This document shows positions 7,429-45,562 of a stretch of DNA of 64,000 nucleotides, piece by piece. Each line of letters starts with the position of its first letter. Position 1 is the stretch's first letter. The stretch is from a virus. Its lineage: Duplodnaviria; Heunggongvirae; Uroviricota; Caudoviricetes. The stretch is taken from the IMG/VR virus record IMGVR_UViG_3300025693_000001; one strand, given 5' to 3'. Position numbers and translations under genes: made by a program. The notes under the pieces are model-generated. The model did not search any database. It saw only the letters and a program-made list of their open reading frames with translations, and was not told the origin of the DNA.

Positions 7429-7447
7429 TTTTTGTTATTTCCTTATA

Positions 7448-9757
7448 TTATGGTTGTGGTGTGCGATCATATAATGGTACATTAGCCACATTTACTTCTA
7501 TCGGTGTTGCAATTGGTGGTATGTTACCAGCGGAGAATACGAATTTGGTTGATGCCCTTCCGACCCGACCAACTTCTCGATATCCCCACGTCGATGGAGC
7601 CGGTGGATTGCCACCCGCTGTCCCATTTCCGTCATTTGCCTTGCCGCTATTAATGGATGCTGCTGGTATTGTGTATGTGTATGTCCGTCCACCTTCATCT
7701 GTTCCACCAATTATGGCTGCAAACAATGGAGTGTTAGCTCCACCATCACCATCAATCAACGTTACTGATGACTCAGCACCAGGGAACGATGAATAAAATG
7801 TTATGTGGGCATCTGTTACAGCAACACCAAACGGTGGGATAGCATCTGTCGACTGACCACTAAAATTAATCGGATTTGCGTCAGCGACTGTCAGCATCTC
7901 GCCAACCAACGACCCGATGTTACTCGCATTCGCCCCATCAACCAACACTGTAATCACACCCGAATCACTAGCCGTTCCAGCGTTTAGTTGTATTTGGAAC
8001 GCATAGGTAACAGCTGAACTCAATCCAGTTGGCATGCCTGGCCAGATTTGATCCGTGTCAGTCAGCACATCAACAACACCCATTGTTGCGTTCACTTCAA
8101 GAAAACCATACTCATCAGCGTATTGTTTAACACCATTCACGTACAGCTCCAAATTTCCGTAACCAGGCACATAATCATACCCCAAATCGCCGTGTGTACC
8201 AGATACTGAGTTTCCGATATCAACTTCACTAACACCTTTCGATGCTATTACCGCTCTATTCGGACGGCGAACCATATCACCGAGGGTCTTATTCAGATCA
8301 CCCAACACATTATCCAGAGGAATGTTTGGATATTCTGGATTGTCATAAAAAGCATGCTCAAGGTACAGATCGAACATCCCCTGAAACAGATTTGGTTGCG
8401 CAATTTGGTGGAATACCGAATCGGAGGTTGTTCCACCCGCAGCGAAACCAGCTACAACAATCTGTGGTAATCCGTTCGTTCTCGTTAGTGTTAATTCTTG
8501 ATTTATGTTATCGAAAAAGCCACCATTGACAACCCCATCACCCGATGCTGATATCGCACCAGCCAATTCAACATCAACGTATTCTTTCGTTGCTGCTTGT
8601 AAGTTTGTTGTTGGGTTGGAATTGAGGAACAAATTGCCAGACATTGTCCCACCTGTGGTGAATAGTACATTCGCGTTTGTTAAAAACGATGATGCTCCAA
8701 CATTCGTCCAAATGGCCCCATCGAATTGTAGCAGGTCATCCTCCGCGATGGGATCACCGTAAATGACATCATATAGATCTGTAACAATCGTGGGGATGGC
8801 AGCTTCTACATCAACCGCAACACCATCGACGTATGCTTTTGTTGCAGCGTCTTGTGCCGAAATCGGAGTTGTCACTCGTCTGATTAGGTTATCATTCATA
8901 TCGATTCCCACACCCCCACCAACAGCACTCACCATGGTGCCACCGGTCAACGGCAAGAATCCGGTATCACTACCCGTTTGGTTTCTCCAAATCGATCCAT
9001 CATATATCAACACACTACCCAATACTGGGGATGATAACTGAACATCTGTCAATTCGCCGAGTTCGTTGTTGGCAGCAATCTGCGTATCAACGTAACTTTT
9101 GTTTACAGCATCGCTTGTGTTGAATGGTGTTGCCAGATCAGTAACCGTAAATCCATTTGCTGATATGTCACCATACAATCCGGTGTTGTTCTGGATAAGA
9201 TATTCCCACCCCCCAATGTACTTACCGATTAGTCCCGATGGTGGTGCAGGTAACAACGACATTACTGTGTTACCGCTACTATCGATGGCAGATGTGGATA
9301 TCAGAAACTCACTCTGAGCATCTGTGGTACCAGCTTCAATGATCCGTAGTTGACTTCCAGGTACCAATCTAGCCGTCTCATCACCAACGATCGTAATGTA
9401 ATTGACAAGAGAATTGTGTGGAGCGACATTCGGTAGGATAACATGCTTACGTGTATTGAACACTCTCAGCACGTAGTCGTCTGTTGACCGGTCTAACCAC
9501 ACCTGCCCCCCGATCGGATATGTTGGTTCTATCGCACCAGCAAAATGCTCCATGGTGTGTAGGATATCTTCCTGTATTCGTTCGCCGTAGTTTGGTGAAC
9601 CCTTACCATGCAACAGCAAGCTTGTTGCAGCGGAAGCAGCTTTTGAGTCTAGTGTGTTGGTTGTTGGATTTTCTGGACCATTTGTAGTGTACGCGTTTAA
9701 CTGGAAACTGCGATTCTCATTTTTGTCAGTAAAATCAATTGTGTAGTTATTTGCCAT
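7448..9757 (-). CDS. Tail fibre-like protein
   Basis: 769 aa; shared N-terminal domain; repeated DAVNKSYVD/DAATKAYVD/QAATKEYVD fibre motifs; CATAAATA at 9798-9805. Confidence 0.75.
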   Translation of the reverse strand: MANNYTIDFTDKNENRSFQLNAYTTNGPENPTTNTLDSKAASAATSLLLHGKGSPNYGERIQEDILHTMEHFAGAIEPTYPIGGQVWLDRSTDDYVLRVFNTRKHVILPNVAPHNSLVNYITIVGDETARLVPGSQLRIIEAGTTDAQSEFLISTSAIDSSGNTVMSLLPAPPSGLIGKYIGGWEYLIQNNTGLYGDISANGFTVTDLATPFNTSDAVNKSYVDTQIAANNELGELTDVQLSSPVLGSVLIYDGSIWRNQTGSDTGFLPLTGGTMVSAVGGGVGIDMNDNLIRRVTTPISAQDAATKAYVDGVAVDVEAAIPTIVTDLYDVIYGDPIAEDDLLQFDGAIWTNVGASSFLTNANVLFTTGGTMSGNLFLNSNPTTNLQAATKEYVDVELAGAISASGDGVVNGGFFDNINQELTLTRTNGLPQIVVAGFAAGGTTSDSVFHQIAQPNLFQGMFDLYLEHAFYDNPEYPNIPLDNVLGDLNKTLGDMVRRPNRAVIASKGVSEVDIGNSVSGTHGDLGYDYVPGYGNLELYVNGVKQYADEYGFLEVNATMGVVDVLTDTDQIWPGMPTGLSSAVTYAFQIQLNAGTASDSGVITVLVDGANASNIGSLVGEMLTVADANPINFSGQSTDAIPPFGVAVTDAHITFYSSFPGAESSVTLIDGDGGANTPLFAAIIGGTDEGGRTYTYTIPAASINSGKANDGNGTAGGNPPAPSTWGYREVGRVGRASTKFVFSAGNIPPIATPIEVNVANVPLYDRTPQP

Positions 9758-9796
9758 TTGCTGTCCTCTGAATAAGTCGAATGTGGCTGTATTCTT

Positions 9797-10246
9797 CTAT
9801 TTATGGAGGTTCGCGTTGGTAAAATAAGGATTCGGATTTAAGAAAAATTCTTGAAGGAAATAGTCGGTTGTTGCTTTGACTTGAGGCAAGTTGTATTGCA
9901 GACCGGTACCCAGTCGGGCGGTATTAATAATAGTATCGTATACGTCGGGATTCAGTTGATATGATTTGAAGTGCAAATCATTTCCAAACAGCAAGTTATC
10001 GTCCCGAATCGACGTATCAAACGGAACACCAAAATACAACTCCAGTAGATGCGAGTAAATGACAGCAACGGAATACGATTTAGCAGGGTATAGGATTTCG
10101 TGTGTAGCGTTACTAAAATAATCAATCGCGTGTTTAGCTAGTTGATCATCATCCATCTGTTTGACCGGCACATCAATGTTGACATCCGATGGATGTGGGT
10201 TCAAATGGTGGAATAGCTCCTGTCTTATTTTGTGGTCCGATACCAT
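9797..10246 (-). CDS. Hypothetical accessory protein of the radical SAM cluster
   Basis: 149 aa; overlaps the end of the upstream rSAM gene; no recognisable family motif. Confidence 0.75.
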   Translation of the reverse strand: MVSDHKIRQELFHHLNPHPSDVNIDVPVKQMDDDQLAKHAIDYFSNATHEILYPAKSYSVAVIYSHLLELYFGVPFDTSIRDDNLLFGNDLHFKSYQLNPDVYDTIINTARLGTGLQYNLPQVKATTDYFLQEFFLNPNPYFTNANLHK

Positions 10247-11163
10247 TCCAACAACCCCTTGAGTCCACTACACGATTCAACATCAAAGTTTTTAATTGGT
10301 CGCAAATGCTCACTCATGCACCTACCACGAAATTCACAATCACCACAATGTTTATTTGTATTGAATGTTAGATACTCATCCATTACCCACTTGAGGTAAT
10401 CAAACCAATCATACACTGGGAGGAAATACTCGTGGCCATTTCGATCAAATTCTAGTACAGCAAAGTCACCATCCGGTGTCACGTATATATGATCATCAGA
10501 CCAAGCATGACCCTTACCATCCAACACTCGGTTTATGTTCGATTCGGTAACAAATTCATAACCCCGTGACTCGATTGGACTTAATTCTATCCACCTGCGC
10601 ACAAATCCTTCATAATCTTTGAAAGATGTGTCATCGGTATTGGCTTGATTTGTTGAGTATGGTTTTATCTCAACAGATTGCAACTTGGGTAACGTGTTGC
10701 ACACCGATATAGCTTCCATCATTGTTGCATCGTCCCACTCAATCATTCCTTTGCTAGCCAACATAAGCACATGAAATGGTGTATCCAATGCCACCATGTT
10801 ATTCATGACTATGGTGTTTTGTTCACGTTCAGTGTAATCCCAGCTAACCGATAAATCGATATCAGGGCCTGACAACCACGCAGGAACGGTTGTTAGGTTG
10901 GTTATGACAGAAACCTTACCACTATAGTGGTTCCTGATTACATCGATGGTACCTTGTATATATTCACCGTCAAGCAATGTTATTTCACCACCATACAAAT
11001 CGACGTGGGTTATTTTCTTATATTTGGATATTTCTACCAACTTATCGTTCAGCACCGATAAGGGAAGCAACGTGGGGTCTTTTAGTTGGTCCTTGGATAA
11101 ATAACAAAACGAACAACGAAGATTACAACGCAAACAACTATTGATGGACACGGAAAATGACAA
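10225..11163 (-). CDS. Radical SAM protein with C-terminal Cys cluster (rSAM-7)
   Basis: CNLRCSFC, YGGEI, ITN, C-terminal CGDCEFRGRC...C; probable TTG start at 11163 with AGGTG Shine-Dalgarno 7 nt upstream. Confidence 0.88.
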   Translation of the reverse strand: MSFSVSINSCLRCNLRCSFCYLSKDQLKDPTLLPLSVLNDKLVEISKYKKITHVDLYGGEITLLDGEYIQGTIDVIRNHYSGKVSVITNLTTVPAWLSGPDIDLSVSWDYTEREQNTIVMNNMVALDTPFHVLMLASKGMIEWDDATMMEAISVCNTLPKLQSVEIKPYSTNQANTDDTSFKDYEGFVRRWIELSPIESRGYEFVTESNINRVLDGKGHAWSDDHIYVTPDGDFAVLEFDRNGHEYFLPVYDWFDYLKWVMDEYLTFNTNKHCGDCEFRGRCMSEHLRPIKNFDVESCSGLKGLLEWYRTTK

Positions 11164-12044
11164 ACTATTACACCTATAAATTAATTGATCCCAGATCACA
11201 CAAACCCTTTTATGTTGGAAAAGGGAAAGGATCCAGAATGTACGAACATAAAACCAACCACTCAAAAAAACGTCACAAACGGTCAAACCCAATGAAGTGC
11301 AAACGTATTAAAGATATACTGGATGCGGGATATGATATTATATATGAGAAACACGAGATGTTCAACGAGGACGACGCATATGCAATGGAGAAACGGTTAA
11401 TCGAATCACTCGGGAAGATAATAGATGGGACTGGTATCCTTACCAACATCGCTGATGGAGGCTTGGGTGGTAACCCACCAAAAACACCAGTCGATCAATA
11501 CACACTTGGTGGCGACTTAATCGCGACATACTCATCCATCATTGACGCGAGTGAGCGAACAGGGATCAACGGACCAAACATATCATCGAGTATCACAAAC
11601 AGAAACACGAAAAACAAATCAGCCGGTGGATTTGTTTGGACGTACAGAGGGGCAGCATTCGCACCCCCATCACCAAAAACAAACTGCAAAACTGTGTTTC
11701 AATTTGACACCACCGGCTCGATAACAGCGGAATACCACTCATCCGCCCAGGCATCAACAGTGTCGGGTGTTGATCGAGCTGGAATCATTAAGTGTTGTAA
11801 CAGTACCCAACGAACCGCTGGAGGGTGGCGGTGGTCGTATGATGCAGTTGCACCAAAGAACACGAGAAAAAGCGAATCATTAACGAAACGTGTTTGTAGG
11901 CTGTCCCTGTCCGGTGGTATCACGATAGAGTACGAATCACTAAAGGACGCCAGTATAGCGAATAATATTCCAGTTTCTGGCATATCAACATGCTGTCACA
12001 ATCAGACCAAGTCGAGAGGTGGGTTTCGCTGGAAATTTATTTGA
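11157..12044 (+). mobile_element. Free-standing GIY-YIG homing endonuclease with three NUMOD1-like repeats
   Basis: N-terminal YYTYKLIDP...FYVGKG...R...E...N; three repeats of V-x-Q-Y/F...Y-x-S...A...I...AGG(F/W)xW; antisense to the operon. Confidence 0.85.
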
Positions 12045-13113
12045 ATCCTGGTTTGTTGGTTGGAATTTGATTTTTGTTTGTTTCTATGATATCAGAAGCT
12101 AGACTTTTCATCAACGTACAATGATCTTCAACGATGTTTTCATCTTTCATATCTTTGATGGTTTTGCGACAACCGTTGCAGATACTAAACATTGGACACG
12201 CATAACATTCTGTTTTTAATGCGGCGAGTGATAAATCATCATCCAGTGGAGTGGCTGGCGTATCCGAAGACATTTCTTTCTCGAAGTTAATCGGTTTGTC
12301 GCGATCATCACCAAAAGCCCCACAACTATAGAAATCACCACCTGGGTTTATGGCACGGATTCCCCGATCGCAGTTACGCGATTGTGGACAAGTGGTACTA
12401 CCTTCGTACAATCGACGTACCATTTGCTTGGTGTTGTATTCCCAATCAATTAGCCCCTCATTGTATACATCCAGATATATTTTATATATTTTCGATAACT
12501 GATATGATGTCGATAAATCGCCAGAGGCCATACCGTAATTAAGTTTACACTCAACCCCCATCCGTTTTGCTAATCGAACATTATCGATTGCGGTGTCTTC
12601 GTTTTCATCAGTGATAACAGAAATGAAATCCGGTCGGTATCCGATGTGTTCAAGAAATGAATTCGACACATCCCAAAAGTCGTTCTCGGTGAATACTCTA
12701 GTTGGTGTTATCCTACGGGTATCCCCATAATTAAACGACGTGGTAACACCAACGCGTTCATGTTTAAATAACTCGATCCATGGTGTAGGGTTTTTAAGAA
12801 AAGGCCACAGATTCGATGTAAACGATAACGTAGCTGGCATATCATTCGCATCCAAAAACGCAATTATATCCCAGTAGTATTTTGGTTTAATCATCATCGG
12901 ATCACCCCCGTTTATAATGAGGGTGTTCGTTTTTGGGTATTTGCGTAAAAACGTGAAGATGTATTCCAAATCAAGAACACGGAAATGTTGGTCCGATATC
13001 ATAGTTGAACTACAGAATGTACAAGCAAAATTGCAGGCTTCCGTGGGTTTAATGATGAACTCCATTGGAGCATTATGTTCGACTATTTTTATCTGATTAA
13101 GTTTTGTTATCAC
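12037..13113 (-). CDS. Radical SAM/SPASM protein (rSAM-6)
   Basis: CNFACTFC, NGGDP, TSN; SPASM-type TCPQSRNC...GDFYSC...CYACPMFSICNGC...C. Confidence 0.92.
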   Translation of the reverse strand: MITKLNQIKIVEHNAPMEFIIKPTEACNFACTFCSSTMISDQHFRVLDLEYIFTFLRKYPKTNTLIINGGDPMMIKPKYYWDIIAFLDANDMPATLSFTSNLWPFLKNPTPWIELFKHERVGVTTSFNYGDTRRITPTRVFTENDFWDVSNSFLEHIGYRPDFISVITDENEDTAIDNVRLAKRMGVECKLNYGMASGDLSTSYQLSKIYKIYLDVYNEGLIDWEYNTKQMVRRLYEGSTTCPQSRNCDRGIRAINPGGDFYSCGAFGDDRDKPINFEKEMSSDTPATPLDDDLSLAALKTECYACPMFSICNGCRKTIKDMKDENIVEDHCTLMKSLASDIIETNKNQIPTNKPGFK

Positions 13114-14297
13114 AAAATACCTTTACTGTGTGCGAATTCATGGTGTTTTTTGTTCCCTTGAGCTATCTCATCTGCGGTGGTATATCCACCCCAGTCGTAT
13201 ATATCATACGTCAAGTTTCCCATATTCTTCGGGTACATATCAAGGACTTTTTTTGGTAACATACAATCCACGATGTCGTACTGTTTCATATAATATAGCA
13301 CGTGTCTGGATACACACGTATCCAAATAGCGACAATCCTCACACTCGGTGGTACCAGATGCATACGCATATTGGGTTTTTTTCGATTCGGTAGCCATCGC
13401 AATCAAATCATCAACCGTGTATTCACCGTCGTGTGGCACTTTAAAAGCTTCCGTCGTGTTTGCAACATTCTCATGTATGAATGGACTCAGATATACTTCA
13501 CCGTCAGACAAAATCCAATTTGAATAGTTGTGTCCACCATGAGACCAATCTGCCACAACCATTTGAATGTCTAACCGATTGGATGGGGTTACTTGACGCT
13601 CAAGCTCGTTATTCCAGTGCCGGATCATGGTTCTAACTGTTCTGGGTTCATGCGAACGAAAGAACGATGGGTTGTAATCTATGATCGTATTAAACTGGTC
13701 CATAGCCAACAACGACATAGTATGCAACGATATCCCTGTCAATTTTTGGATATTAATCTGCATCGTGTAACAGACTCTTGCAGACATAGCATCGAATAAT
13801 CGTATTTTGTGTTTGAGATCGTCCAGGTAATCTTGGTTGTCGGTATTGAATTTTTTCGGATGCACAACTACCTGAATTTCAAACTCCATATATTCGTGTG
13901 GATAATACTCATTAAACAATTCAATAAAATCTAGAATCGTTTGATCATCACACATTAGTGTGGTCGGGATGGCAAAAATAGGTTTATGCTTGGCCATAAA
14001 TTGCTGGAGTTTTGGTTCCATCAACAACTCTTTTGCATTTACAGCTCCGAAGAAGTCAACCGGCCCAATTACAAGCTCATCGAATAGCATACCCGCGTCA
14101 TTAACCTCTTGGGCCAACTTCTCGAGAAGATCCAAATCTCGTTGTGTGTATGGAGTGTTACCTTTGTTGACGAAGCAACCCCGACAGCTATGCACGCAAG
14201 TGGTCAGAAAATCTGCAGTAGCTCTGTGGGCTACTACAGGTTTTGTTGCTGTCTCTGATGTTTTTTCGTAAAGTAAATTATTTGTTATTATCGGCAC
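13110..14297 (-). CDS. Divergent radical SAM-like protein, paralogue 3 (rSAM-5)
   Basis: CVHSCRGC; GPVDFF instead of GGEP; PSFFR; C-terminal CEDCRYLDTCVSR...DC. Confidence 0.82.
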   Translation of the reverse strand: MPIITNNLLYEKTSETATKPVVAHRATADFLTTCVHSCRGCFVNKGNTPYTQRDLDLLEKLAQEVNDAGMLFDELVIGPVDFFGAVNAKELLMEPKLQQFMAKHKPIFAIPTTLMCDDQTILDFIELFNEYYPHEYMEFEIQVVVHPKKFNTDNQDYLDDLKHKIRLFDAMSARVCYTMQINIQKLTGISLHTMSLLAMDQFNTIIDYNPSFFRSHEPRTVRTMIRHWNNELERQVTPSNRLDIQMVVADWSHGGHNYSNWILSDGEVYLSPFIHENVANTTEAFKVPHDGEYTVDDLIAMATESKKTQYAYASGTTECEDCRYLDTCVSRHVLYYMKQYDIVDCMLPKKVLDMYPKNMGNLTYDIYDWGGYTTADEIAQGNKKHHEFAHSKGIL

Positions 14298-15417
14298 AAC
14301 GTTTTATGCGGGCAGTGGTTGAAGGGGTGGTGCTTGTGTTGTATAAGTCCAGAATTTCTTTTGGATATACACACTCGGTTATGTCTTTTGCTTCCATGAA
14401 ACTCAGCACATTTCTACCAACACACGTTGGTAAGTAGTGACAAGTTGTACACTCATCCGTCTTAGTCACGTACGCAAACTGTTCGGCTATTAGCCTGTGG
14501 TTTGTATCCATCACTTCATCAACGGTTGTTCCAGTTTCCATCGAAGGATAATCGAATAATATCTGTTCATATATAAACGGACTGATGAACATTTTATTTT
14601 TCTTGTAATTAACTACAATCGTATTCATCACATTGTGACTTTGATCAGCTATAGTTAGCATGATATCTTTGTAGTTTGCTTCTGAAATTGTGGCACGTAG
14701 AAACTCTTTCCACACATCCAGGTGAGCTGATATTAACTTATCATTACCCGTACGAAAGAACGATGGTAAGAATTCAATAATAGTATCAAACTGTTCACGA
14801 ACGATTTGAGTTATCTTATCGTAGTGTGTAATCATATCGACGTCATGATGCACGTTTACAGCGAATGACCAATCCACCACTTTTGGTGTTTCATGCTTGA
14901 GATAATGCAGAGCTTTGCTAAAATCTTTGTAGTATTGTTCGTCTCCACTCAACAACAAGTCAACATCCAACGGCACCAACAACTCGATAATCATATCCGA
15001 TCTGTATTTTGATGGGTCATCCAATATAGCAAAAACGGCATCCCATTGTTCTTGGTCGACTTTATGGAACATCGCAGTTGTTGTTATTCTGGTTTTGGGG
15101 TGTATGCTTAACAATTCTTGAAACTTTGGATTGTCAAGAACTTCAACAGCATTCGATGCACTGAATATATCTGTTGGCGAAATGATAACCTCGCGGAACC
15201 GTAGCCCACGTTCGTTCATGTTATGTGCTAGTGTTAATGCAGCATCCAAATCAACATCGTTGATATCGTTGCGTCGGTTTACGAAGCAACCAGGGCAAGC
15301 ATGCGCACAATCACGCAATACTTCAAGATTTAATACAAAATCCATGGTGTGATCGTCCCATCCTGCGGCAACATTGGGGGTGCTTTGTAGTGTAAATAAG
15401 TTTGGTTCAATGCTCAT
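14278..15417 (-). CDS. Divergent radical SAM-like protein, paralogue 2 (rSAM-4)
   Basis: CAHACPGC; SPTDIF; PSFFR; C-terminal CTTCHYLPTCVGR...EC. Confidence 0.82.
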   Translation of the reverse strand: MSIEPNLFTLQSTPNVAAGWDDHTMDFVLNLEVLRDCAHACPGCFVNRRNDINDVDLDAALTLAHNMNERGLRFREVIISPTDIFSASNAVEVLDNPKFQELLSIHPKTRITTTAMFHKVDQEQWDAVFAILDDPSKYRSDMIIELLVPLDVDLLLSGDEQYYKDFSKALHYLKHETPKVVDWSFAVNVHHDVDMITHYDKITQIVREQFDTIIEFLPSFFRTGNDKLISAHLDVWKEFLRATISEANYKDIMLTIADQSHNVMNTIVVNYKKNKMFISPFIYEQILFDYPSMETGTTVDEVMDTNHRLIAEQFAYVTKTDECTTCHYLPTCVGRNVLSFMEAKDITECVYPKEILDLYNTSTTPSTTARIKRCADNNK

Positions 15418-15456
15418 GTGGGTAGATTCTCCTGAAAGCTGTGGTATATGTGCGTG

Positions 15457-15464
15457 TATTTATA
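15457..15464 (-). promoter_or_regulatory. T4-type late promoter inside the rSAM cluster
   Basis: Perfect TATAAATA in the only sizeable intergenic gap of the cluster, 40 nt upstream of ATG 15417. Confidence 0.75.
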
Positions 15465-15503
15465 CTAATAGATCATCTACTATACCCAACCCATCACGAT
15501 AGG

Positions 15504-16622
15504 TCAAATATATTTGGTGCCATCCCATATGTTATCTCTCGGAACGATGCAATCTATTAGATCTCGACTCTCCATGTAAGCTATAACATTACGACCAATA
15601 CAAGACGACAACAGATTACAATGTGCACACCCTGTTGTCTGTGAGGCGTACATATACTGAGATGTGACTAACTCTCCTAGCTTTTTTGTGATATCATCTG
15701 CTGTGTGTGGTTTATCGATCTTGAATATTTCATTTGTTTGAGGTATACCATCAAACAAATACGGCATCACATACAAATCTCCATCCTTGTACGATAGGTT
15801 TATGAAGCCCTCACCACCAAAATATTTATCAAACATATTGAAACTCACGTACTCAGGTAGTGGTTCGTCTGGTGGTAATTGTGCAACTAGCATAGTTTTA
15901 AACGCAGACACCCGACGTTCCACCATGTCAGTTGAATTCGATCGAAAGAAACTTGGTATGATCCGTAATGGCACGTTAAACTCTTCGTGTATCTTTTCTG
16001 CTACCGCAAGTAACGTAGTACCATTAAACATCTGGTCGTGATAATTAACCACAAACACCACGGTATCCTTTGCAAATAAGCACAAATGTTCGGTAAGTTT
16101 ATCGATGTATTCCCGATCGTTACTCAGGTATTTCGCCAGATCAAACGCAACAAACAACTCAAAGTCTCGAGCTGCTGCATTGTTCAAATGTTTTTGCAGG
16201 GTGTGCCATCTCATCTTTAGCGTTCTGGTATCGCACATCAGGGTGGAGCTAGCACTAAGGGAGAAATTTGATGTAAGTTCATACATCAGAGGATTGTCCA
16301 TTATCTCGTCGAAATTCGTTGCTGTGAAAATATCCGTTGGTCCGATGAATACTTCTTCGCACGCCACAGACATACTTTGAAGCGTATCAGCGATTGCAAT
16401 GGCTGACGATATGTCGTCTGGAGTACATGTGTTCCGTCTGGGTATGTAACACCCAACACAATTGAAAGCGCATCCATCTAGTATGTCCAATACCAGTTCG
16501 GACCGTAGCATATCCGTGTATTGTAGTTTTGCGGGATTGTGTGGTCCGATCGTTGCGGATCCGATATCACCAATATTGACACCATCTGATAGTGTTTCTT
16601 TTTGGTAGGTGTTCATTTTCAT
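15504..16622 (-). CDS. Divergent radical SAM-like protein, paralogue 1 (rSAM-3)
   Basis: CAFNCVGC; GPTDIF; PSFFR; C-terminal CAHCNLLSSCIGR...DC. Confidence 0.82.
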   Translation of the reverse strand: MKMNTYQKETLSDGVNIGDIGSATIGPHNPAKLQYTDMLRSELVLDILDGCAFNCVGCYIPRRNTCTPDDISSAIAIADTLQSMSVACEEVFIGPTDIFTATNFDEIMDNPLMYELTSNFSLSASSTLMCDTRTLKMRWHTLQKHLNNAAARDFELFVAFDLAKYLSNDREYIDKLTEHLCLFAKDTVVFVVNYHDQMFNGTTLLAVAEKIHEEFNVPLRIIPSFFRSNSTDMVERRVSAFKTMLVAQLPPDEPLPEYVSFNMFDKYFGGEGFINLSYKDGDLYVMPYLFDGIPQTNEIFKIDKPHTADDITKKLGELVTSQYMYASQTTGCAHCNLLSSCIGRNVIAYMESRDLIDCIVPRDNIWDGTKYI

Positions 16623-17734
16623 TGGGTGGTACGTATCCCCTTTGTTGTGTAGTCAAAAAATGCACGCATGGTGCAATCACTCATGTTTCTATCTCTAATT
16701 TTCCAATCATGCTGGGTAAAACATCTAAATCCACACCGCTTGAAGTATTCACACGATAAGCAACCATGCTCATCCATAAAGTTCTGCATCATCCCAGCAT
16801 TATCGGCTTTATTGTAAGTGGTAACAAAATCGGATTGATCATATCGGTTCCATCTACAATTCGATGTTGAACCATCCGGAAATATTGTTATTTTGTTTAA
16901 CGACAAACAATGCATCTGGTTTTCGGTATTCTCGATCAGTTCTCGTATTGGTGATATCAGTGGGTAGTTATCCGCCACAAAAGTATACCAATCATATATC
17001 ATCCGATCGGATGGAATCTCATCACTAAAACCTTTATCCGGAATGTAGTCATCGAAGTACACCGGAAATGTTGCGTATAGCCACTTGAAATACTCATCAC
17101 CATCTTGCATAAAATTGGTGATGGACGATACCGTACCGACACAATTGATAGACAAGATGTATTCTGGTCCAAAAAACTTCACATTGTCTCGGTATCGATT
17201 CGACATAGGACGTCCATCAAAATCGTATGATGCAATCAGATGGGTGTCAATGTTTAATGATCGCATCCGATCGATAAGTGACTTTACCAGCTCGATTTTT
17301 TTAAACAGAAAATTACTAACCCACACGACTTTCATTGTGTGTCCATACAAATCGAATATGGGTTTCAGTTTCTGCATCAATCGCCAATATGCGTCAATTA
17401 ACTGCTCCATTTGTTGATCTTGGAATAATTCACCACCAACCACATTGATCTGCATATAGTCGACGGTATTCTGTTTCTCTTTCAGAAATTGTTCTATTGT
17501 TGGTATCTTATCAAACATATCCTCGTCCGACATACCAACAATAGAATCTTTATCATGGTGACAAAAATCACACACGATGTTGCAGTTTTCGAACAACGTT
17601 AGTTCGATTTCTCCATTAACGGGACGTTTCGTCTCTAATATTTGCTTGGTTGTATCGGATGGGACTGATGGTGTAATTCCAATTGCCGTAATATCAGCAA
17701 TTGGAATTATGGGGATAGTCTTATACTGCGTCAT
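16619..17734 (-). CDS. Radical SAM/SPASM protein (rSAM-2)
   Basis: CNIVCDFC, VGGEL, VSN; HC...PDGSTSNC...CLSCEYFKRCGFRC...C. Confidence 0.9.
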   Translation of the reverse strand: MTQYKTIPIIPIADITAIGITPSVPSDTTKQILETKRPVNGEIELTLFENCNIVCDFCHHDKDSIVGMSDEDMFDKIPTIEQFLKEKQNTVDYMQINVVGGELFQDQQMEQLIDAYWRLMQKLKPIFDLYGHTMKVVWVSNFLFKKIELVKSLIDRMRSLNIDTHLIASYDFDGRPMSNRYRDNVKFFGPEYILSINCVGTVSSITNFMQDGDEYFKWLYATFPVYFDDYIPDKGFSDEIPSDRMIYDWYTFVADNYPLISPIRELIENTENQMHCLSLNKITIFPDGSTSNCRWNRYDQSDFVTTYNKADNAGMMQNFMDEHGCLSCEYFKRCGFRCFTQHDWKIRDRNMSDCTMRAFFDYTTKGIRTTQ

Positions 17735-18494
17735 CTGGTATTGGTAGCATTGCCTGCATATCGATCATCAGTTGTTTAATCTTATCGCCCGCCACTGTAT
17801 CACCGGCGTCCATTTCAGCGGCAAGAGTTATTAACCCAGCGTAAGCGCTTTTGTCGTTGAACACGTACGAGAATATATTACCACCGTTGAACATATATTC
17901 ATCAAAATACCGCGTGTAGTATATTTGATCGGATAATGGAATGTTTGTGCATAAGTAAGCCATCAGAAAATCTTTAATAGTAAACAACTTAACAACGGAG
18001 TATCCGATCTCATCAAATTGTTCATCAGTGACAGTAGTAATTAATGTATCATGCAGTGGTCCAAATTCTTCTCCCTCACCGGCACCTAGCTTGGTTAACA
18101 TGTACAGGGGGATGGAATTAACAAATGCCATCTGTGGTATCAACAAAGAGTGATGCTGTGTTGCAAAGTCGATACACTCATCGATGGACCACAAGTGGGG
18201 ATGATCAGTATAAAACATGTCGCCATGCTTGGCTAATCCTAAAATATTCGCATGTGTAATCTTTAAGTTTTGCACTTCTGAAAATTCCTTAAGCCGCATG
18301 TACTCATCCATGAGTTCGTGCGTGATCACGTCAATGTTGCAATTCAGCCCCAAATTAGCAATGTACATTAATAGAAATTTCGGATTTGATAGATTTGCAA
18401 GTGATGCATGATAATCTATCAAATATGCCTGGTTTTTATCCTTAAAGAATTCCACCATATCGGTGGGTGTTAATGGTAATACTATTTTTTCCAC
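17721..18494 (-). CDS. Hypothetical accessory protein of the radical SAM cluster
   Basis: 257 aa, GTG start, overlaps rSAM-2 start; appears helical; no catalytic motif recognised. Confidence 0.75.
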   Translation of the reverse strand: MEKIVLPLTPTDMVEFFKDKNQAYLIDYHASLANLSNPKFLLMYIANLGLNCNIDVITHELMDEYMRLKEFSEVQNLKITHANILGLAKHGDMFYTDHPHLWSIDECIDFATQHHSLLIPQMAFVNSIPLYMLTKLGAGEGEEFGPLHDTLITTVTDEQFDEIGYSVVKLFTIKDFLMAYLCTNIPLSDQIYYTRYFDEYMFNGGNIFSYVFNDKSAYAGLITLAAEMDAGDTVAGDKIKQLMIDMQAMLPIPDDAV

Positions 18495-18510
18495 TTATGG
18501 TACCTTCGTG

Positions 18511-19725
18511 TTATTGTGTTCTTCGTTTCTTCGGTTCACTCCAAAGACTTGGAATGGTCGTAGATGCAAACTGAGAGTATGATTTAACTGAATCGATATT
18601 AGCCATCATTGCTTTTTTTGTTTTGAATTTATCAGACGTAACGATTATTTCATCGTTATCATCGACCAGTTCCCACATCCATTTATCAGCTATGTGTTTG
18701 GTTACAAACGTACCGGCAGTTTCTTCACCAGTCGGATACAATGTAGTCAATAATAATGTGTTAAATTTCTGTCCCGCTCCACTTATAAAATCGTGCTGAG
18801 AGAATGGTATAATGTTATTGATGACCAAGTCAACGTCACTCGTCTCAAACAAACGGTAGAATAAATCGTGTTCATACAAATGTCGTGGGTGTTCCTCGGG
18901 ATAATCAATATCATTCGTCACGCACAATCTAGTCCAATCTTTGATCCGTTCCAACAACACAGGGTCATTGAAGTCCAGACTCTTTGGGTTAAAGAACAAA
19001 GCTCGTAGTAGTGCATTGTTTTCGATGGCAGCGATGGCCTCACCGATGGAATCCAAAGAATCAGCACCCAAGAATGTAGCCAAGACCTTGCGATCAATAG
19101 CCATGTCGTTCCTGATATTGAGAGTGACCGCATGCACCAGACCTCGCAACATGGGTGTAGCAATTGCTGACACTTTTGTGTCGGCTATTGATTTTTCTAT
19201 GTATCCATTTTTGTACAGATACAATACATACTCCAATGGTAGGTCTTGTGGGTTATCCACCAAACCACCAACTGCCGTATACAAACCTGGTTTCAGCAAT
19301 CGGTATGCATCACCGATATCGTATGTAACAGGTCGCCCAACGAAGTAATTTTTTAACTGTTGAATGCTTAACAATTCCGTCATGTGCTCTTCAGATATTG
19401 CATACCGTACTTGCAGCTCTATCAACATCATGGCAAACAATCGAGCATAGTCATCATCACGCGATACGACTATCCATAATTTGGTTTCTGTGCTTAACCA
19501 ATTATAAAAATCGGTATCACTTCCATTGAATTCCAACGCTATCATTTCCAGATAGCTGTTGAACTGCATCACCACCCCTTTTGCGTTGGGGTTATTTGCA
19601 TCCGCTCTAATCATTTCATCAATAGGTGTATCACTCGGTGTTAACACCACTGTGCGGTGTTCACCTGATAGAACGTGAACATCCTCGGGATATGTCACAT
19701 AAATGCTGTTTCGTATATTGAACAT
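18511..19725 (-). CDS. Accessory protein with C-terminal DUF1508/YegP-like domain
   Basis: ATG 19725 overlaps the upstream stop (TAATG); C-terminal GTF...KWMWELVDDNDEIIVTSDKFKTKKAMMANIDSVK resembles the DUF1508 pattern. Confidence 0.65.
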   Translation of the reverse strand: MFNIRNSIYVTYPEDVHVLSGEHRTVVLTPSDTPIDEMIRADANNPNAKGVVMQFNSYLEMIALEFNGSDTDFYNWLSTETKLWIVVSRDDDYARLFAMMLIELQVRYAISEEHMTELLSIQQLKNYFVGRPVTYDIGDAYRLLKPGLYTAVGGLVDNPQDLPLEYVLYLYKNGYIEKSIADTKVSAIATPMLRGLVHAVTLNIRNDMAIDRKVLATFLGADSLDSIGEAIAAIENNALLRALFFNPKSLDFNDPVLLERIKDWTRLCVTNDIDYPEEHPRHLYEHDLFYRLFETSDVDLVINNIIPFSQHDFISGAGQKFNTLLLTTLYPTGEETAGTFVTKHIADKWMWELVDDNDEIIVTSDKFKTKKAMMANIDSVKSYSQFASTTIPSLWSEPKKRRTQ

Positions 19726-20309
19726 TAGCGTCTTCCTCTTGCGCTGTGGCACACACTATGGCAACTGCTGTGGCAATAGCTAATTGTGGCATCTGTTTTG
19801 TTTGAATTTGTGGTAATAACGCCACGCAATGATGCTATTACAGCCTCATAATTTGAGCGATCGATGGAATCTGCATTCCCAATGTTGTCATATGCTCCGC
19901 CTGGTGCACCATCACTAGCCGTTAACACGCCTGGACTGGTTTTATATGCGGTCCGAGTGTAATCTGCTTTCACACCCGAAGTATTTCCATTGCCCCATGA
20001 TGATCGTCTGCGGTGGAATGTAAATATTCGCGTCTTACTGTACAAACTCAGAAACGAATTTAGCGTTGCTACCAAATTACCACTACCAACGCTACTCGTC
20101 AACGATGATGTAGCGATGTTTGTTGGTATTGACACTCCCAGTGATACACCAGTAGCAGCTGCTCGCGATACATCAGTGCTATTTGCAATAGCAGGTGATC
20201 CAGGGGTTAATTCAGTAGTCGCTTGTTGACGTAGTGTTGTAACACCACCCACAGCTGATGTTGAGCTTATCAACCCACCCCATATTGTTTTTGTTATTTC
20301 ATTTGCCAT
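19725..20309 (-). CDS. Putative rSAM substrate / precursor with C-terminal (CHSx)3 motif
   Basis: 194 aa, S/T/G/A-rich; its only three Cys are in YCHSSCHSVCHSARGRR; directly downstream of rSAM-1. Confidence 0.7.
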   Translation of the reverse strand: MANEITKTIWGGLISSTSAVGGVTTLRQQATTELTPGSPAIANSTDVSRAAATGVSLGVSIPTNIATSSLTSSVGSGNLVATLNSFLSLYSKTRIFTFHRRRSSWGNGNTSGVKADYTRTAYKTSPGVLTASDGAPGGAYDNIGNADSIDRSNYEAVIASLRGVITTNSNKTDATISYCHSSCHSVCHSARGRR

Positions 20310-20321
20310 GTTGCAATCCTT

Positions 20322-21401
20322 TTATTCCTGTCCCATAAACCCACCTAGTATTGTTTTATACAGGGGTATATCGTTATCGTTTTTCATTTTGGTCATCATG
20401 GTTTTTGGTGCAGCACACACGTTACCTTGCCAAGCCAATTGGTGACAATCACCATTACACACGTCATATACCGGACAAATAGAACAAGCTGGATGTCTAA
20501 TTATCTCAGCGGATATGTTACACATTCTACCTTCGCTAGTCATCAGAGCCTCGACGTCGTCGTGGATCGTACCAAATGTGTTGTCTACGGCTGAGTTTGG
20601 GCAGCCTCCGATTGATCCATTTGCGTTGATGGTTAGTATCTTTTGTTCACACTCTCGGCACCGACACCCTGCATGTGCATTGTGTACTAAACTCGTTAAT
20701 ATTGAATCGAAAAACATGTTATCGATAAATTCCCAAGTCTTGTGTTCCAGTGTTTGTTCCCACAACTTCAAAAACCACATATCTAGCGCTTCATTCGACG
20801 GCATTATACCCTGTTCAATGAATTGCAATGCGTTACCATTTGGGGTTACTCGCTCGAAGTTAATGTGGTTAATACCAAGGCTAGCCATATCACGTATAAT
20901 GTCAATTGGCTCCATGTGATTTACAACATCACCAGACAGGCAAACCATTACCGTGATATCATACCCATCGTCAGTTAGCTGTTTCACATTATCTCGCCAC
21001 AGCTGTTCTTGTTTCGGTTTTGGCCATCGGATATTCTTGTCCCAAGAGGTACCAAACGATTTCCCACATATTTCATCAAACACGCGAATTTTATCCGGTG
21101 TCAGTGGATAGGTCAGGTTCGTTTGCACTGACCACCATATGTTTGGCCATAAGTCCTTTACCCCATTCCAAACATCGAATAGTTTTTCGGTGGGAGCGAG
21201 CATCGGCTCACCACCATGGAACGATATGTTACCATGGTCATAGTTCGGGTTGTATTCGTGCAAGCGTTTGAAGAATGCTACAGTTGCGTCAACATCGAAC
21301 CACCCCTTTCGCCCATTGTGACCATTAGTAAAGCAGTGGTCACAATGCAGGTTGCAGGTATCGGTGGTTTTTAAGTAACACATGAAATCGTTAGTTGCCA
21401 T
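20322..21401 (-). CDS. Radical SAM/SPASM protein (rSAM-1), peptide-maturase-like
   Basis: CNLHCDHC, SFHGGEP, QTN; CRCREC...GSIGGC...CSICPVYDVCNGDC...C. Confidence 0.93.
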   Translation of the reverse strand: MATNDFMCYLKTTDTCNLHCDHCFTNGHNGRKGWFDVDATVAFFKRLHEYNPNYDHGNISFHGGEPMLAPTEKLFDVWNGVKDLWPNIWWSVQTNLTYPLTPDKIRVFDEICGKSFGTSWDKNIRWPKPKQEQLWRDNVKQLTDDGYDITVMVCLSGDVVNHMEPIDIIRDMASLGINHINFERVTPNGNALQFIEQGIMPSNEALDMWFLKLWEQTLEHKTWEFIDNMFFDSILTSLVHNAHAGCRCRECEQKILTINANGSIGGCPNSAVDNTFGTIHDDVEALMTSEGRMCNISAEIIRHPACSICPVYDVCNGDCHQLAWQGNVCAAPKTMMTKMKNDNDIPLYKTILGGFMGQE

Positions 21402-21417: not shown

Positions 21418-22584
21418 TTATGCAGAATACAGAGCTGGCCACACTTGGACCCATCCTGTTCCCGCTAAGTACATTTGTATTGTTGCTCCAACCGCTTGAG
21501 TATCCCCTGTTTGAGCGGGTTGCCCTTTGCCGGTCGGATTGTATTGCATAAAATCACCAGCAGCAACTTTATCATCTACATAACCCTTCGTCGATGCTTC
21601 ATACGTTGATACTGGGTGTCTACCTAATGTTAGCGTTGCTGATCCATTCATAGAATCACCAGCTCGACTGATCTTATCGTTCAGTTGCGTTTGAACATTA
21701 CTGGTCAACCCAACGTTAAAATTTGTTTCACTTGCCGTTAGTGTTGGTAGATCCAACGCATCCAAGTAAGCGTTCTGCAACGATGTTAGATGAACAATTT
21801 CGTCGGATAAATGGGTTCCCATATCCCCAACAAAGTCGTCAAACGCTTTTTTGTGCATTGCATCATATGGATCAACAGGATCACCCAAATTGATAATTCG
21901 GTGTCTCGCTGTAACTCCAGCATCATCCCCACCCATATCCAATTCACCACTCATCCAATCACCACACTGTCGTAGAAAACTTTCTCCGACTAACACGAAA
22001 CCATCAGGAGCCGCTTCAGTGTGGTTTGGGTTGTATATCTTCAATAGTGGTTCAGTGATACAACCATTTGTATCTCCAGCGATACTGGTATCATACCACA
22101 AATCCCCAACTGTTGGGTTTGCGGGTTGTGCGGTGTTAACATATATACCAGATGTTACCTTCCATAATGGTACAGGTGGGTTATTTTCAACCCCCAGATC
22201 ATCCAATATGTCTGCGTCATACACGTATAACAACCGACTAGTAACATTATACCACAATTGCCCGTCGAGGGGAACTGTTATCCCATTTCCTGGTCCCAAA
22301 TCATTCGCATCTTTGGGTAGAATGGGGCTTGTTGTTGGGTCATAATCATATGACCCAGTAGATGGATTGTAATCACCTGCTTGTTTTTCAGGGCAGTTGA
22401 AATTCTCTGCCAACCTATAGACGTTCTCGTCCATTCCCTCACCCCACTGTAATGCTCCCATGCCGTATAACCGCATGTCACTGTCGTGGTGTGTACTTCC
22501 AGGGCCATTCAATGCTCCTGGTTTTATAGTAAGACTTTTTGAAGAAGCTCCATCTGTACTATCGATAACATAAACTGTTGCCAT
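21418..22584 (-). CDS. Tail fibre-like protein
   Basis: Shared N-terminal LYGMGALQWGE...EN..RLAENF domain; GQLWY/GDLWY repeats; EASTKGYVD; CATAAATA at 22616-22623. Confidence 0.72.
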   Translation of the reverse strand: MATVYVIDSTDGASSKSLTIKPGALNGPGSTHHDSDMRLYGMGALQWGEGMDENVYRLAENFNCPEKQAGDYNPSTGSYDYDPTTSPILPKDANDLGPGNGITVPLDGQLWYNVTSRLLYVYDADILDDLGVENNPPVPLWKVTSGIYVNTAQPANPTVGDLWYDTSIAGDTNGCITEPLLKIYNPNHTEAAPDGFVLVGESFLRQCGDWMSGELDMGGDDAGVTARHRIINLGDPVDPYDAMHKKAFDDFVGDMGTHLSDEIVHLTSLQNAYLDALDLPTLTASETNFNVGLTSNVQTQLNDKISRAGDSMNGSATLTLGRHPVSTYEASTKGYVDDKVAAGDFMQYNPTGKGQPAQTGDTQAVGATIQMYLAGTGWVQVWPALYSA

Positions 22585-22618: not shown

Positions 22619-23197
22619 TTATGCGGTTATAGAATCCAACAAATTACCAAAGTCGGAAATAGCTGTTTTTATTTCCGTGCTTGTTGCTGACGCATTAATA
22701 GCGACTTGTGTTTGTAACCGATATTGTTCCACTAAAACATTATACCCCAACGTGGCATTATACTCAGCTATAATATCATCAGCAGCAGCTGTTGCTGTTT
22801 TTGATAATGCTATAACATCCCCCGCTATGAATGGGTATGGTGTTGTATCAACAGGATATCCAGCGGCTTTATATGCTAGAGCTTGTGTATTCTTTTCCAA
22901 ATATACCAAATTCTGAATAGCATGTTGAGTGATTTGTTGCGTGCGATGTTGTTCTGCAGATGCATTGATACTCGATATTGCTAGTACCTTATCTGCCGCC
23001 AGTGTGTAGTTGGGATCATCTATTTCCACCCACGGTCCAACACCATTCGTGTACGTAACTAACTTACCCTTACCAACGGATATTGGTTTTTCGATTGTGT
23101 ATCCTGCTATACCAGTTTTATTAGTAGCAGATCGTGATACTCCAACGTACGTGTAATCGGTTGTGTCGAATTTATAAAATGTGTATATAGTGATCAT
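22619..23197 (-). CDS. Putative tail fibre assembly/chaperone protein (start MITIY at 23197)
   Basis: ATGA overlap with upstream fibre gene; position and helical C-terminal half typical of fibre assembly proteins. Confidence 0.55.
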   Translation of the reverse strand: MITIYTFYKFDTTDYTYVGVSRSATNKTGIAGYTIEKPISVGKGKLVTYTNGVGPWVEIDDPNYTLAADKVLAISSINASAEQHRTQQITQHAIQNLVYLEKNTQALAYKAAGYPVDTTPYPFIAGDVIALSKTATAAADDIIAEYNATLGYNVLVEQYRLQTQVAINASATSTEIKTAISDFGNLLDSITA

Positions 23198-24789: not shown

Positions 24790-24824
24790 AGGATTCGTAT
24801 TCCTCAAAGTATTACGATATCCCG

Positions 24825-24832
24825 TATTTATA
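24825..24832 (-). promoter_or_regulatory. T4-type late promoter heading the fibre-rSAM transcription unit
   Basis: Perfect TATAAATA, intergenic. Confidence 0.75.
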
Positions 24833-45517: not shown

Positions 45518-45562
45518 TATAATACATTCCCAAATGGTTTTATGTGTTGAGTATTTATAGCG

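Follow-up and report, generated by a model that had tools for sequence, protein, structure and literature searches.

The question raised by the locus described here is what seven radical S-adenosylmethionine (SAM) enzyme-like proteins, encoded together in one phage gene block, act upon. The block occupies positions 9797–21401 (~11.6 kb) of a 64-kb stretch of DNA from IMG/VR virus record IMGVR_UViG_3300025693_000001 (Caudoviricetes), referred to below, at its full length of 64,000 nucleotides, as the window. Eleven co-oriented minus-strand open reading frames (ORFs), most of which overlap by 4–28 nt, were found across it, as an earlier sequence-only reading had described. They encode seven proteins with a CX3CX2C motif and a C-terminal cluster of Cys residues, three accessory proteins, and a protein of 194 amino acids (aa) that ends in a short tail of Cys-His repeats. 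The window (G+C ~43%) comes from the genome of a giant phage, and its other products include a large terminase, a helicase, fibre-like proteins and 1350-aa paralogues. The explanation preferred here, to which a probability of roughly 0.6 was given, is that the block is a conserved maturation cassette, the enzymes of which modify the exposed Cys/His tail before the tailed protein joins the virion near the baseplate or fibres.

The proposed substrate and its tail are encoded at the following positions.

19725–20309, minus strand: tailed protein (CHS), 194 aa, a Cys-free body predicted to be folded, followed by a predicted flexible C-terminal tail
19728–19775, minus strand: codons of the tail, CHSS-CHSV-CHSA-RGRR, followed by the stop codon, with the invariance seen across 56 aligned members

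The 194-aa protein ends in YCHSSCHSVCHSARGRR and contains no Cys outside the tail; across the family the median number of Cys residues in the body is likewise 0. In the alignment of 56 members, C179, H180, C183, H184, C187, H188, R193 and R194 are invariant, which is in part built in by the way many of the sequences were collected, but the sets of proteins found by profile or anchored on an enzyme (see below) are free of that bias and agree on the conservation of the tail. Position 4 of the repeat is Ser in 84–93% of tails, and is Val and Ala in repeats 2 and 3, respectively, in the window clade, while no tail departs from Cys or His at the first two positions. This points to Cys-His, rather than His-x-Ser, as the conserved unit, and the CHSx unit originally proposed does not hold. 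The last repeat reads C-H-[GST]-[SA]-R across the tails.

A model built by AlphaFold2 (AF2) with the family alignment has a confident alpha/beta body (mean pLDDT 82, pTM 0.79). Confidence is low in the tail (mean pLDDT of 55 and 47 for the final two blocks of ten residues, 181–194), which suggests that the tail is a flexible, accessible end of an otherwise confident fold. A fold of ~120 residues is kept together with the tail across the family. No Pfam, NCBIfam or PHROG family was matched by the tailed protein, no relative was found by Foldseek in the PDB, and the best row of a wide VIA search had a Z of 4.2, from which no fold could be named. A search of BFVD with the model returned the protein's own family alone as relatives; proteins of 504–660 aa from 'Myoviridae sp. 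ctijX18' with weak structural similarity are also listed there. In three family members, P0059 (453 aa), P0061 (276 aa) and P0157 (292 aa), the tailed domain lies behind or before extra sequence.

The tail was found to be linked to the enzymes in both directions. Using a DNA pattern for the tail alone, 129 ORFs on 102 IMG/VR contigs were identified, and in all 129, which encode proteins of 124–320 aa, the tail lies directly before the stop codon. This is far above chance, the expectation being ~3 matches by a rough estimate, not computed by a tool, that was made for a first, shorter version of the pattern. In the opposite direction, an alignment search with rSAM1, the enzyme encoded directly upstream of the tail gene in most loci and the one most tightly linked to it, recovered 374 viral stretches, and the 62 best rSAM1 loci with at least 1.1 kb of downstream DNA were examined for a tail. 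A strict tail was present in 37 and a (CHxx)3 tail ending in Ile or Leu rather than RxRR in a further 15, so that most have a Cys-His tail gene directly downstream. Homologous clusters thus do carry the Cys-His-tailed protein, and the possibility, raised at the outset, that they might lack it was not borne out.

Seven of the other 10 loci were inspected. In one (L190) the tail is degenerate, five share an arrangement in which two tandem tail genes for proteins of ~128 aa lie several kb away on contigs also recovered in the tail scan (e.g. L027, L036, L061 and L079), and for the last (L188) no tail gene was found within the available DNA around the locus. The distant-tail arrangement was established directly by contig identity for L239, and is indicated by the contig alone for L240, which was not among the loci inspected. 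Neither L190 nor L191 has a strict or loose tail, and the ORF downstream in L190 ends in CHSSCHSSHSSRNRR with the third Cys missing. In the L196–L220 subfamily, RxRR is absent and the proteins end in CHSNCHGSCHGS plus one Ile or Leu. Some lineages thus do without the basic end or the third Cys, as shown by the Ile/Leu-ending tails and by L190, respectively.

A profile made from the 56 tailed proteins recovered 866 representatives at 50% identity, 655 of them at E<=1e-10. Among the best 148 representatives, 135 end in at least three CHxx repeats followed by RxRR and 12 in close variants. When phage records were searched by tblastn, nothing was found with either the tailed protein of the window or a marine 257-aa member. 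DNA-pattern and profile searches were needed because the body is too divergent, and the tail too short or filtered, for tblastn. A word-indexed homologue search found 9 close relatives and missed the distant family. An identical copy of the tailed protein of the window is recorded on a contig of 324,905 bases.

Orthologues of rSAM1 with 37–47% identity are encoded by unrelated jumbo phages, namely Atu_ph07, Phosso, RSL2/RSF1, the Burkholderia FLC/S13 phages and pPa_SNUABM_DT01. The window rSAM1 shares 64% identity with its counterpart in viral locus L049 and 47% with the Atu_ph07 enzyme. In all three cultured-phage loci inspected, the gene after the rSAM1 orthologue ends in a Cys-His tail (FCHSSCHASCHNSRSRR in Atu_ph07, VCHSSCHTSCHGSRGRR in RSL2 and ICHTSCHTSCHSARGRR in pPa_SNUABM_DT01). 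When the window proteins were used as phmmer queries, the gene order was found to be fixed as cupin, rSAM1, tailed protein, acc257, rSAM2, (par copies), rSAM6, rSAM7, orf149; the window holds the tailed protein with rSAM1, acc257, rSAM2, rSAM6, rSAM7 and orf149 in this order. The cupin/JmjC protein and 2-oxoglutarate (2OG)-Fe(II) oxygenases are frequent, not universal, members. The cassette lies beside baseplate or fibre genes in the window, Atu_ph07, RSL2 and pPa_SNUABM_DT01, and the flanking fibre genes differ between lineages. On many marine and freshwater contigs (L008, L013, L027, L036, L061, L079 and others), two tandem bare-core tailed proteins of ~128 aa accompany four or five par-type paralogues, and loci with more substrate genes seem to encode more par enzymes.

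Evidence for the destination of the tailed protein comes from the published virion proteome of Atu_ph07, in which gp170 (31.89 kDa) was detected with 8 unique peptides and 35% coverage (PMC6102473, Table S5). This mass is exactly that of the tail-bearing ORF of Atu_ph07. The products of the neighbouring genes, gp165–169 and gp171–175, which include the radical SAM proteins gp171, gp168 and gp165, are absent from the same list (PMC6102473, Table S5). As gp170 is listed and the adjacent radical SAM proteins are not, the tailed protein is packaged in Atu_ph07 and the enzymes are not. In addition, gp170 was seen in gel bands 1–9 and was most abundant in band 1, the top band (PMC6102473, Table S5), whereas other Atu_ph07 proteins of ~30 kDa peak in bands 7–8, and proteins in bands 1–2 are mostly of 77–137 kDa (PMC6102473). 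The protein thus also runs in a form of high mass that resists heat and sodium dodecyl sulfate (SDS), which fits covalent linkage. A second virion proteome covering an orthologue was not found in the S13 and AP-J-162 papers.

The enzymes of the block are as follows.

20322–21401, minus strand: rSAM1, 359 aa, CX3CX2C at residue 16, GGE at 63 and 10 C-terminal Cys; phrog_1802 (E 8e-50), PF04055 (31.1 bits)
16619–17734, minus strand: rSAM2, 371 aa, CX3CX2C at 51, GGE at 100 and 7 C-terminal Cys; phrog_1802 (E 2e-26); in 57 loci
15504–16622, minus strand: par3, 372 aa, CX3CX2C at 51, IGPTD in place of GGE, and CX2CX5C...C; phrog_31457
14278–15417, minus strand: par4, 379 aa, divergent radical-SAM-like paralogue on the same basis as par3, with orthologues also in Bdellovibrionota loci
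13110–14297, minus strand: par5, 395 aa, divergent radical-SAM-like paralogue on the same basis as par3 (phrog_31457, motifs and family alignment)
12037–13113, minus strand: rSAM6, 358 aa, CX3CX2C at 27, GGD at 69 and 8 C-terminal Cys; PF04055 (31.3 bits), phrog_1802 (E 1e-48); in 42 loci
10225–11292, minus strand: rSAM7, listed as 355 aa, CX3CX2C, GGE and CX2CX5C...C; PF04055 (28.6 bits), phrog_1802 (E 7.5e-32); in 34 loci

The CX3CX2C motif lies within the first 60 residues of 7 of the 7 proteins and is invariant in the rSAM1 and par alignments. The gathering threshold of Pfam PF04055 (29.5 bits) is reached by rSAM1 and rSAM6, rSAM7 falls just under it, and rSAM2 and par3–5 have no Pfam match; rSAM2 does match phrog_1802, annotated 'radical SAM domain-containing protein'. 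The start of rSAM7 is probably the TTG codon at 11163, which would give a protein of 312 aa, like its orthologues of 307–313 aa. In par3–5 the GGE motif is replaced by I(G/S)P(T/V)D; within the par family, the P and D of this motif do not vary, and conservation of its G and T is at least 90%. The par family alignment has 7 invariant Cys, and its profile aligns weakly but collinearly with that of the rSAM1 family over 291 columns (hhalign E 7e-4, probability 26%).

At the C-terminus, rSAM1, rSAM2 and rSAM6 have 7–10 Cys in a SPASM-like arrangement, and the SPASM family TIGR04085 is matched by rSAM1 at 27.1 (cut-off 27) and by rSAM6 at 24.5. The four C-terminal Cys of rSAM7 and par3–5 (CX2CX5C...C) are consistent with a single auxiliary cluster. 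The top-ranking NCBIfam families for rSAM1 and rSAM6 are anaerobic sulfatase-maturating enzyme (anSME), DynA, YhhB, DarE and PapB, all far below their cut-offs, and anSME is the sole match that aligns along the whole length of the rSAM1 family, the alignment with the triceptide enzyme ChlB being confined to the N-terminal part. With SPASM maturases as the best matches of rSAM1 and rSAM6, both among families and among structures, these comparisons point to enzymes of a peptide- or protein-modifying type but do not assign them to a named family. The profile comparison proposed at the outset thus favours SPASM-type protein modification over the cofactor and DNA-base families.

The closest of these relatives, anSME/AtsB (TIGR03942; PDB 4K36–4K39), is the sole solved structure that aligned to rSAM1 over the full length including the SPASM domain. 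Scores against TIGR03942 were 52.8 bits for the window rSAM1 and 65.3 bits for a Bdellovibrionota orthologue, against a cut-off of 349 bits. In keeping with the proposed activity, the target of anSME is a folded protein, in which the Cys or Ser of the motif C/S-x-P/A-x-R is oxidised, and the last repeat of the tail reads C-H-x-x-R. However, the likeness is in C...R spacing only, as position 3 is G, S or T and not P/A; moreover, the cassette includes no sulfatase, and three repeats and several enzymes are involved. In an alignment of hidden Markov models, a nearly invariant Pro of the rSAM1 family is found opposite the Asp that follows the conserved Cys of anSME, the proposed general base of that enzyme.

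The next best sequence relatives of rSAM1 and rSAM6 are SPASM maturases of ribosomally synthesised and post-translationally modified peptides (RiPPs), which act on short repeats with aromatic or His and Cys residues. They include the triceptide/cyclophane enzymes ChlB, YhhB, XyeB and GrrM, DynA (dynobactin), DarE (darobactin) and PapB (ranthipeptide), and the matches are 5- to 15-fold below the cut-offs. In contrast to their leader-core peptides, the protein of the cassette is a conserved folded protein of 124–320 aa, and there are many enzymes per substrate. A further parallel is the SPASM enzyme QhpD, which installs several Cys thioether cross-links in QhpC, the gamma subunit of quinohemoprotein amine dehydrogenase. 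After cross-linking QhpC becomes a permanent subunit of a larger assembly, in which it resembles the role proposed for the tailed protein. The match to QhpD (TIGR03906) is marginal and N-terminal (E 1e-5, 24 bits against a 453-bit cut-off), and the cassette differs in substrate motif and biological setting and has no quinone cofactor genes.

Taken in this light, the cassette would work as follows. The substrate would be the 194-aa protein, with its Cys-free body and (Cys-His-x-x)3-Arg-Gly-Arg-Arg tail. The four core enzymes, rSAM1, rSAM2, rSAM6 and rSAM7, would carry auxiliary Fe-S clusters of the SPASM/twitch kind, and the three divergent paralogues par3–5 would have been added in the lineage of the window. 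Assisted perhaps by acc257 and orf149, the enzymes would act by radical chemistry on the Cys and His of the tail, in the cytoplasm and late in infection. The most likely outcomes would be cross-links, of the thioether or C-C kind, or Cys residues oxidised in the C-x-x-x-R context. The matured protein, and not the enzymes, would then be built into the virion near the baseplate or fibres, where the modified tail may provide a covalently linked or metal-binding element.

Similar cassettes were found outside phages. A relaxed tail pattern identified 70 loci in a collection of species-representative genomes. In ~45 of these the tail is at the exact C-terminus, and most of them also have radical SAM neighbours within 8 kb. 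The other ~25, mostly in high-GC genomes such as Streptomyces and Frankia, were set aside as chance matches, with the motif mostly not C-terminal or not in a called ORF, and with 0 radical SAM neighbours. Approximately 30 of the tail loci are labelled Bdellovibrionota, three of them on contigs of 1.29, 2.45 and 2.84 Mb. The flanks of two chromosomal copies look bacterial, with lspA (identified by Pfam) and an apparent ABC-transporter ATPase, and no phage structural genes stood out around them, though these flanks were not scanned against phage families. The second chromosomal locus examined includes a cupin and two 2OG oxygenases, and in a compact 8-gene operon of Pseudobdellovibrionaceae none of the genes reaches a curated NCBIfam cut-off. 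In a chromosome of Bacteriovoracaceae (L176, 2.84-Mb contig; coordinates 6869–13948), a protein of 2360 aa with RCC1/Big_2 domains is encoded inside the cassette, between rSAM1 and acc257, and is a candidate for the structure served by the tailed protein in predators.

A quick maximum-likelihood tree of rSAM1, midpoint-rooted and based on a single gene so that it shows kinship and not the direction of transfer or the host, placed the window and L049 within a group (SH-aLRT 99) that consists mostly of Bdellovibrionota sequences, one of them chromosomal, with Atu_ph07 outside it. By tree path, the rSAM1 of the window is nearest to Bdellovibrionota rows and not to the other cultured jumbo phages. 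Recent exchange with Bdellovibrionota, or a host within that phylum, is a possibility. A system confined to phages is excluded by the chromosomal cassettes, and the description of the block as a virion-protein system is supported in part by the packaging of the Atu_ph07 orthologue without its enzymes and by the position of the cassette beside baseplate and fibre genes, but does not extend to the Bdellovibrionota chromosomes.

Several observations weigh against the proposed maturation of a virion protein. The Atu_ph07 protein is only ~20% identical to that of the window and comes from the sole phage with virion evidence, and its presence in band 1 could be due to a fibre complex that withstands SDS, with no covalent chemistry involved, because gp196 and gp197 of Atu_ph07 also run above their size (PMC6102473). 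In RSL2, the orthologue ORF068 is annotated 'hypothetical', whereas ORF057 and ORF065 are annotated 'virion structural protein', and ORF068 may not have been detected in virions. The paralogues par3–5 do not have the GGE SAM-binding motif and reach radical SAM profiles weakly, and Ser at position 4 is exchanged for Val and Ala in the window tail. Finally, the Bdellovibrionota copies are in chromosomes with no visible phage genes, and the virion is therefore not the final destination everywhere.

Other explanations start from the same genes. The unmodified Cys3His3 tail could be a metal or Fe-S site of a structural protein, with the enzymes acting elsewhere, for example on neighbouring fibre proteins. 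Three Cys and three His at a 4-residue period are a plausible ligand set, fibre-like genes flank the cassette, and the 2360-aa RCC1/Big_2 protein is embedded in one Bacteriovoracaceae cassette, but the tailed protein alone always travels with the enzymes while the flanking fibre genes vary by lineage, and metal binding alone does not explain 4–9 dedicated peptide-maturase-like enzymes; this account was considered rather unlikely. It was judged somewhat less probable still that the tail is cleaved and released as a modified peptide or cofactor, in the manner of RiPPs, pyrroloquinoline quinone or mycofactocin, to act in the infected cell, for example against host defences or competing phages. 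A C-terminal core peptide with several radical SAM enzymes would fit such logic, and the weak matches are to RiPP maturases. However, family and profile scans matched no block gene to peptidase or ABC-transporter families, in agreement with the original reading, and found no leader-recognition domain (RRE); the folded body of ~120 residues is conserved with the tail, and the Atu_ph07 orthologue is in the virion.

Among characterised systems, the closest analogue in logic appears to be HXS, in which HxsA, a protein with HxS repeats, is matured by the radical SAM enzymes HxsB and HxsC, with HxsD, to block DNA entry and protect against phage (Li et al., Nat Commun 2026, PMC13128918). Both have a protein-sized substrate with short His repeats, more than one dedicated radical SAM enzyme (two in HXS; PMC13128918) and a small accessory protein, and no classical leader or exporter. 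The repeats of the cassette are also usually C-H-x-S, and so contain His-Xaa-Ser, and rSAM6 weakly matches HxsC. A phage counterpart of HXS, used for superinfection exclusion, is nevertheless very improbable. The HxsC match, the only one, is 23.1 bits in the window and 30.8 bits in L141 against a cut-off of 267.9 bits, and no match was found to HxsA, HxsB or HxsD (the four Hxs families being TIGR03976–03979). Cys-His and not Ser is invariant, the repeats come last in the protein but for RxRR, and there are four to nine enzymes. No N-terminal hydrophobic segment or signal peptide was evident on reading the tailed proteins (no predictor was run), and no peptidoglycan-binding domain was matched in Pfam or NCBIfam. 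Furthermore, HXS defends the cell, whereas the product of the cassette is packaged in the virion, as in Atu_ph07. Equally improbable is a role of the enzymes in making or repairing modified nucleotides, DNA bases or cofactors, with the tailed protein as a carrier or scaffold. Weak N-terminal matches to MoaA, QueE, NrdG and viperin were found, and one orthologue is labelled MoaA in GenBank, but these matches are limited to the common Fe-S/SAM core and are far below cut-offs, the sole full-length alignment is with a protein-modifying SPASM enzyme, and no nucleotide-metabolism gene is constant in the cassette. If, instead, the tail is modified as proposed, a bolder and rather doubtful extension is that it forms a new kind of warhead or staple made from a protein, which would act as a covalent cross-linker or as a redox-active or metal-binding centre on the organelle that contacts and breaches the Gram-negative envelope. 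Many paralogous enzymes would then build a cofactor-like structure in multiple steps from nine residues of a structural protein, and giant phages and predatory Bdellovibrionota would share the tail because both must attach to and penetrate other bacteria.

Three further genes of the block encode accessory proteins.

18511–19752, minus strand: DUF1508/YegP-like accessory, 413 aa as listed, with PF07411 (E 1.5e-8) at residues 355–394 as a C-terminal module
17721–18494, minus strand: acc257, core accessory, 257 aa, phrog_20767 (E 6e-25), in 65 motif-selected viral loci
9797–10246, minus strand: orf149, last gene of the cassette, phrog_20737 (E 3e-22), no known family

The 413-aa accessory is lineage-specific, and among the motif-selected loci homologues were found in L007 and L049 only. 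For acc257 a confident AF2 model (pLDDT 82) was obtained, but no known Pfam or NCBIfam family was matched, Foldseek found nothing in the PDB, the best Z of a wide VIA search was 3.8, and there was no usable ESM Atlas match. Rows of low Z (ChlB, Z 3.2; anSME, Z 2.9) raised the idea that acc257 is a decayed radical SAM protein, which was dropped because comparison of acc257 with the rSAM1-family profile found nothing. A predicted complex of acc257 with the tailed protein scored 0.00, which gives no verdict and is evidence neither way. The orf149 gene follows rSAM7 in 21 viral loci and in Bdellovibrionota; a lead to Fic from ESM Atlas (0.92; 23% of members with Fic) was weak and was not adopted.

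The features in and around the block that are not part of the conserved cassette are the following.

21418–22584, minus strand: fibre-like protein, 388 aa, directly upstream of rSAM1 in the place of the cupin in other phages, with a phrog_15511 N-terminal module
11157–12044, plus strand: GIY-YIG/NUMOD-type homing-endonuclease gene, antisense, between rSAM6 and rSAM7; phrog_314 (homing endonuclease) and phrog_20162
15457–15464, minus strand: T4-type late-promoter-like word TATAAATA, in the one intergenic gap of any size within the block, with the par4 gene (14278–15417) starting 40 nt further downstream

The block lies between paralogous tail-fibre genes, as had been proposed, in that minus-strand proteins of 769 aa (7448–9757), 388 aa (21418–22584) and 537 aa (23194–24807) on its two sides have the phrog_15511 N-terminal module in common and weak matches to tail-fibre PHROGs. 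The module looks like a common attachment domain with differing distal parts. In L049, too, rSAM1 is preceded by a homologue of the 388-aa protein. No homologue of the cupins or 2OG oxygenases of Atu_ph07, RSL2, pPa_SNUABM_DT01 or a Halobacteriovoraceae locus was found within the 64-kb window (phmmer E<0.01). The version of the cassette in the window is thus unusual, with no cupin or 2OG oxygenase in the 64 kb, a fibre-like gene in the usual place of the cupin, the extra DUF1508 accessory and three par copies. No DNA near-identical to the block was found by megablast against 50,697 phage records, among which the phage of the window has no close sequenced relative. The homing-endonuclease gene, which overlaps the stop codon of rSAM6 and the probable TTG start of rSAM7 and to which no counterpart was assigned in the related loci examined, is an intruder and not a working part of the cassette.

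A second minus-strand copy of the late-promoter-like word is at 24825–24832, upstream of a fibre-like gene, and all four minus-strand copies in the window are just upstream of gene starts. The block had initially been placed downstream of late promoters. The two copies at 15457 and 24825 do exist, but the total in the window (7 seen, 4 expected) is not significant, and their hint at late expression is suggestive only. Another copy, at 45552–45559, is just upstream of the second of two giant minus-strand ORFs (36420–40463 and 41471–45517) encoding paralogues of 1347 and 1348 aa that are 37% identical end to end and have no PHROG family.

Clusters of several radical SAM genes in phages have been remarked on before. 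Aeromonas phage 332-Vera has eight radical SAM genes within a baseplate/fibre cluster (PMC12390700), a marine T4-like TARA genome has 12 (PMC5332604), radical SAM genes were also remarked on in RP12/RP31 (PMC5468394), and Burkholderia phage S13 has a cupin, radical SAM and 2OG oxygenase genes (PMC11898562). These clusters are probably of the same kind as the cassette. However, the four reports are gene listings that leave the clusters unexplained, and do not describe a tailed protein, cassette, substrate or function, and full-text literature searches found no description of the Cys-His tail or the cassette.

Maturation by radical SAM enzymes has been described for secreted peptides, for a few enzymes (sulfatases and an amine dehydrogenase) and, since 2026, for one defence effector, but not for a component of a virus particle. 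The carriers of the cassette, which spend 6–14 kb on it, include marine, phiKZ-like and Rak2/T4-like phages as well as predatory bacteria, where it is chromosomal, and none of its genes has a curated family or a solved fold. As it is carried by the cultured phages Atu_ph07, RSL2/RSF1 and pPa_SNUABM_DT01, the system is directly testable. Its chemistry, once worked out, would add a new enzyme-substrate system to radical SAM biochemistry, and the cassette might explain an SDS-resistant element of the baseplates or fibres of giant phages.

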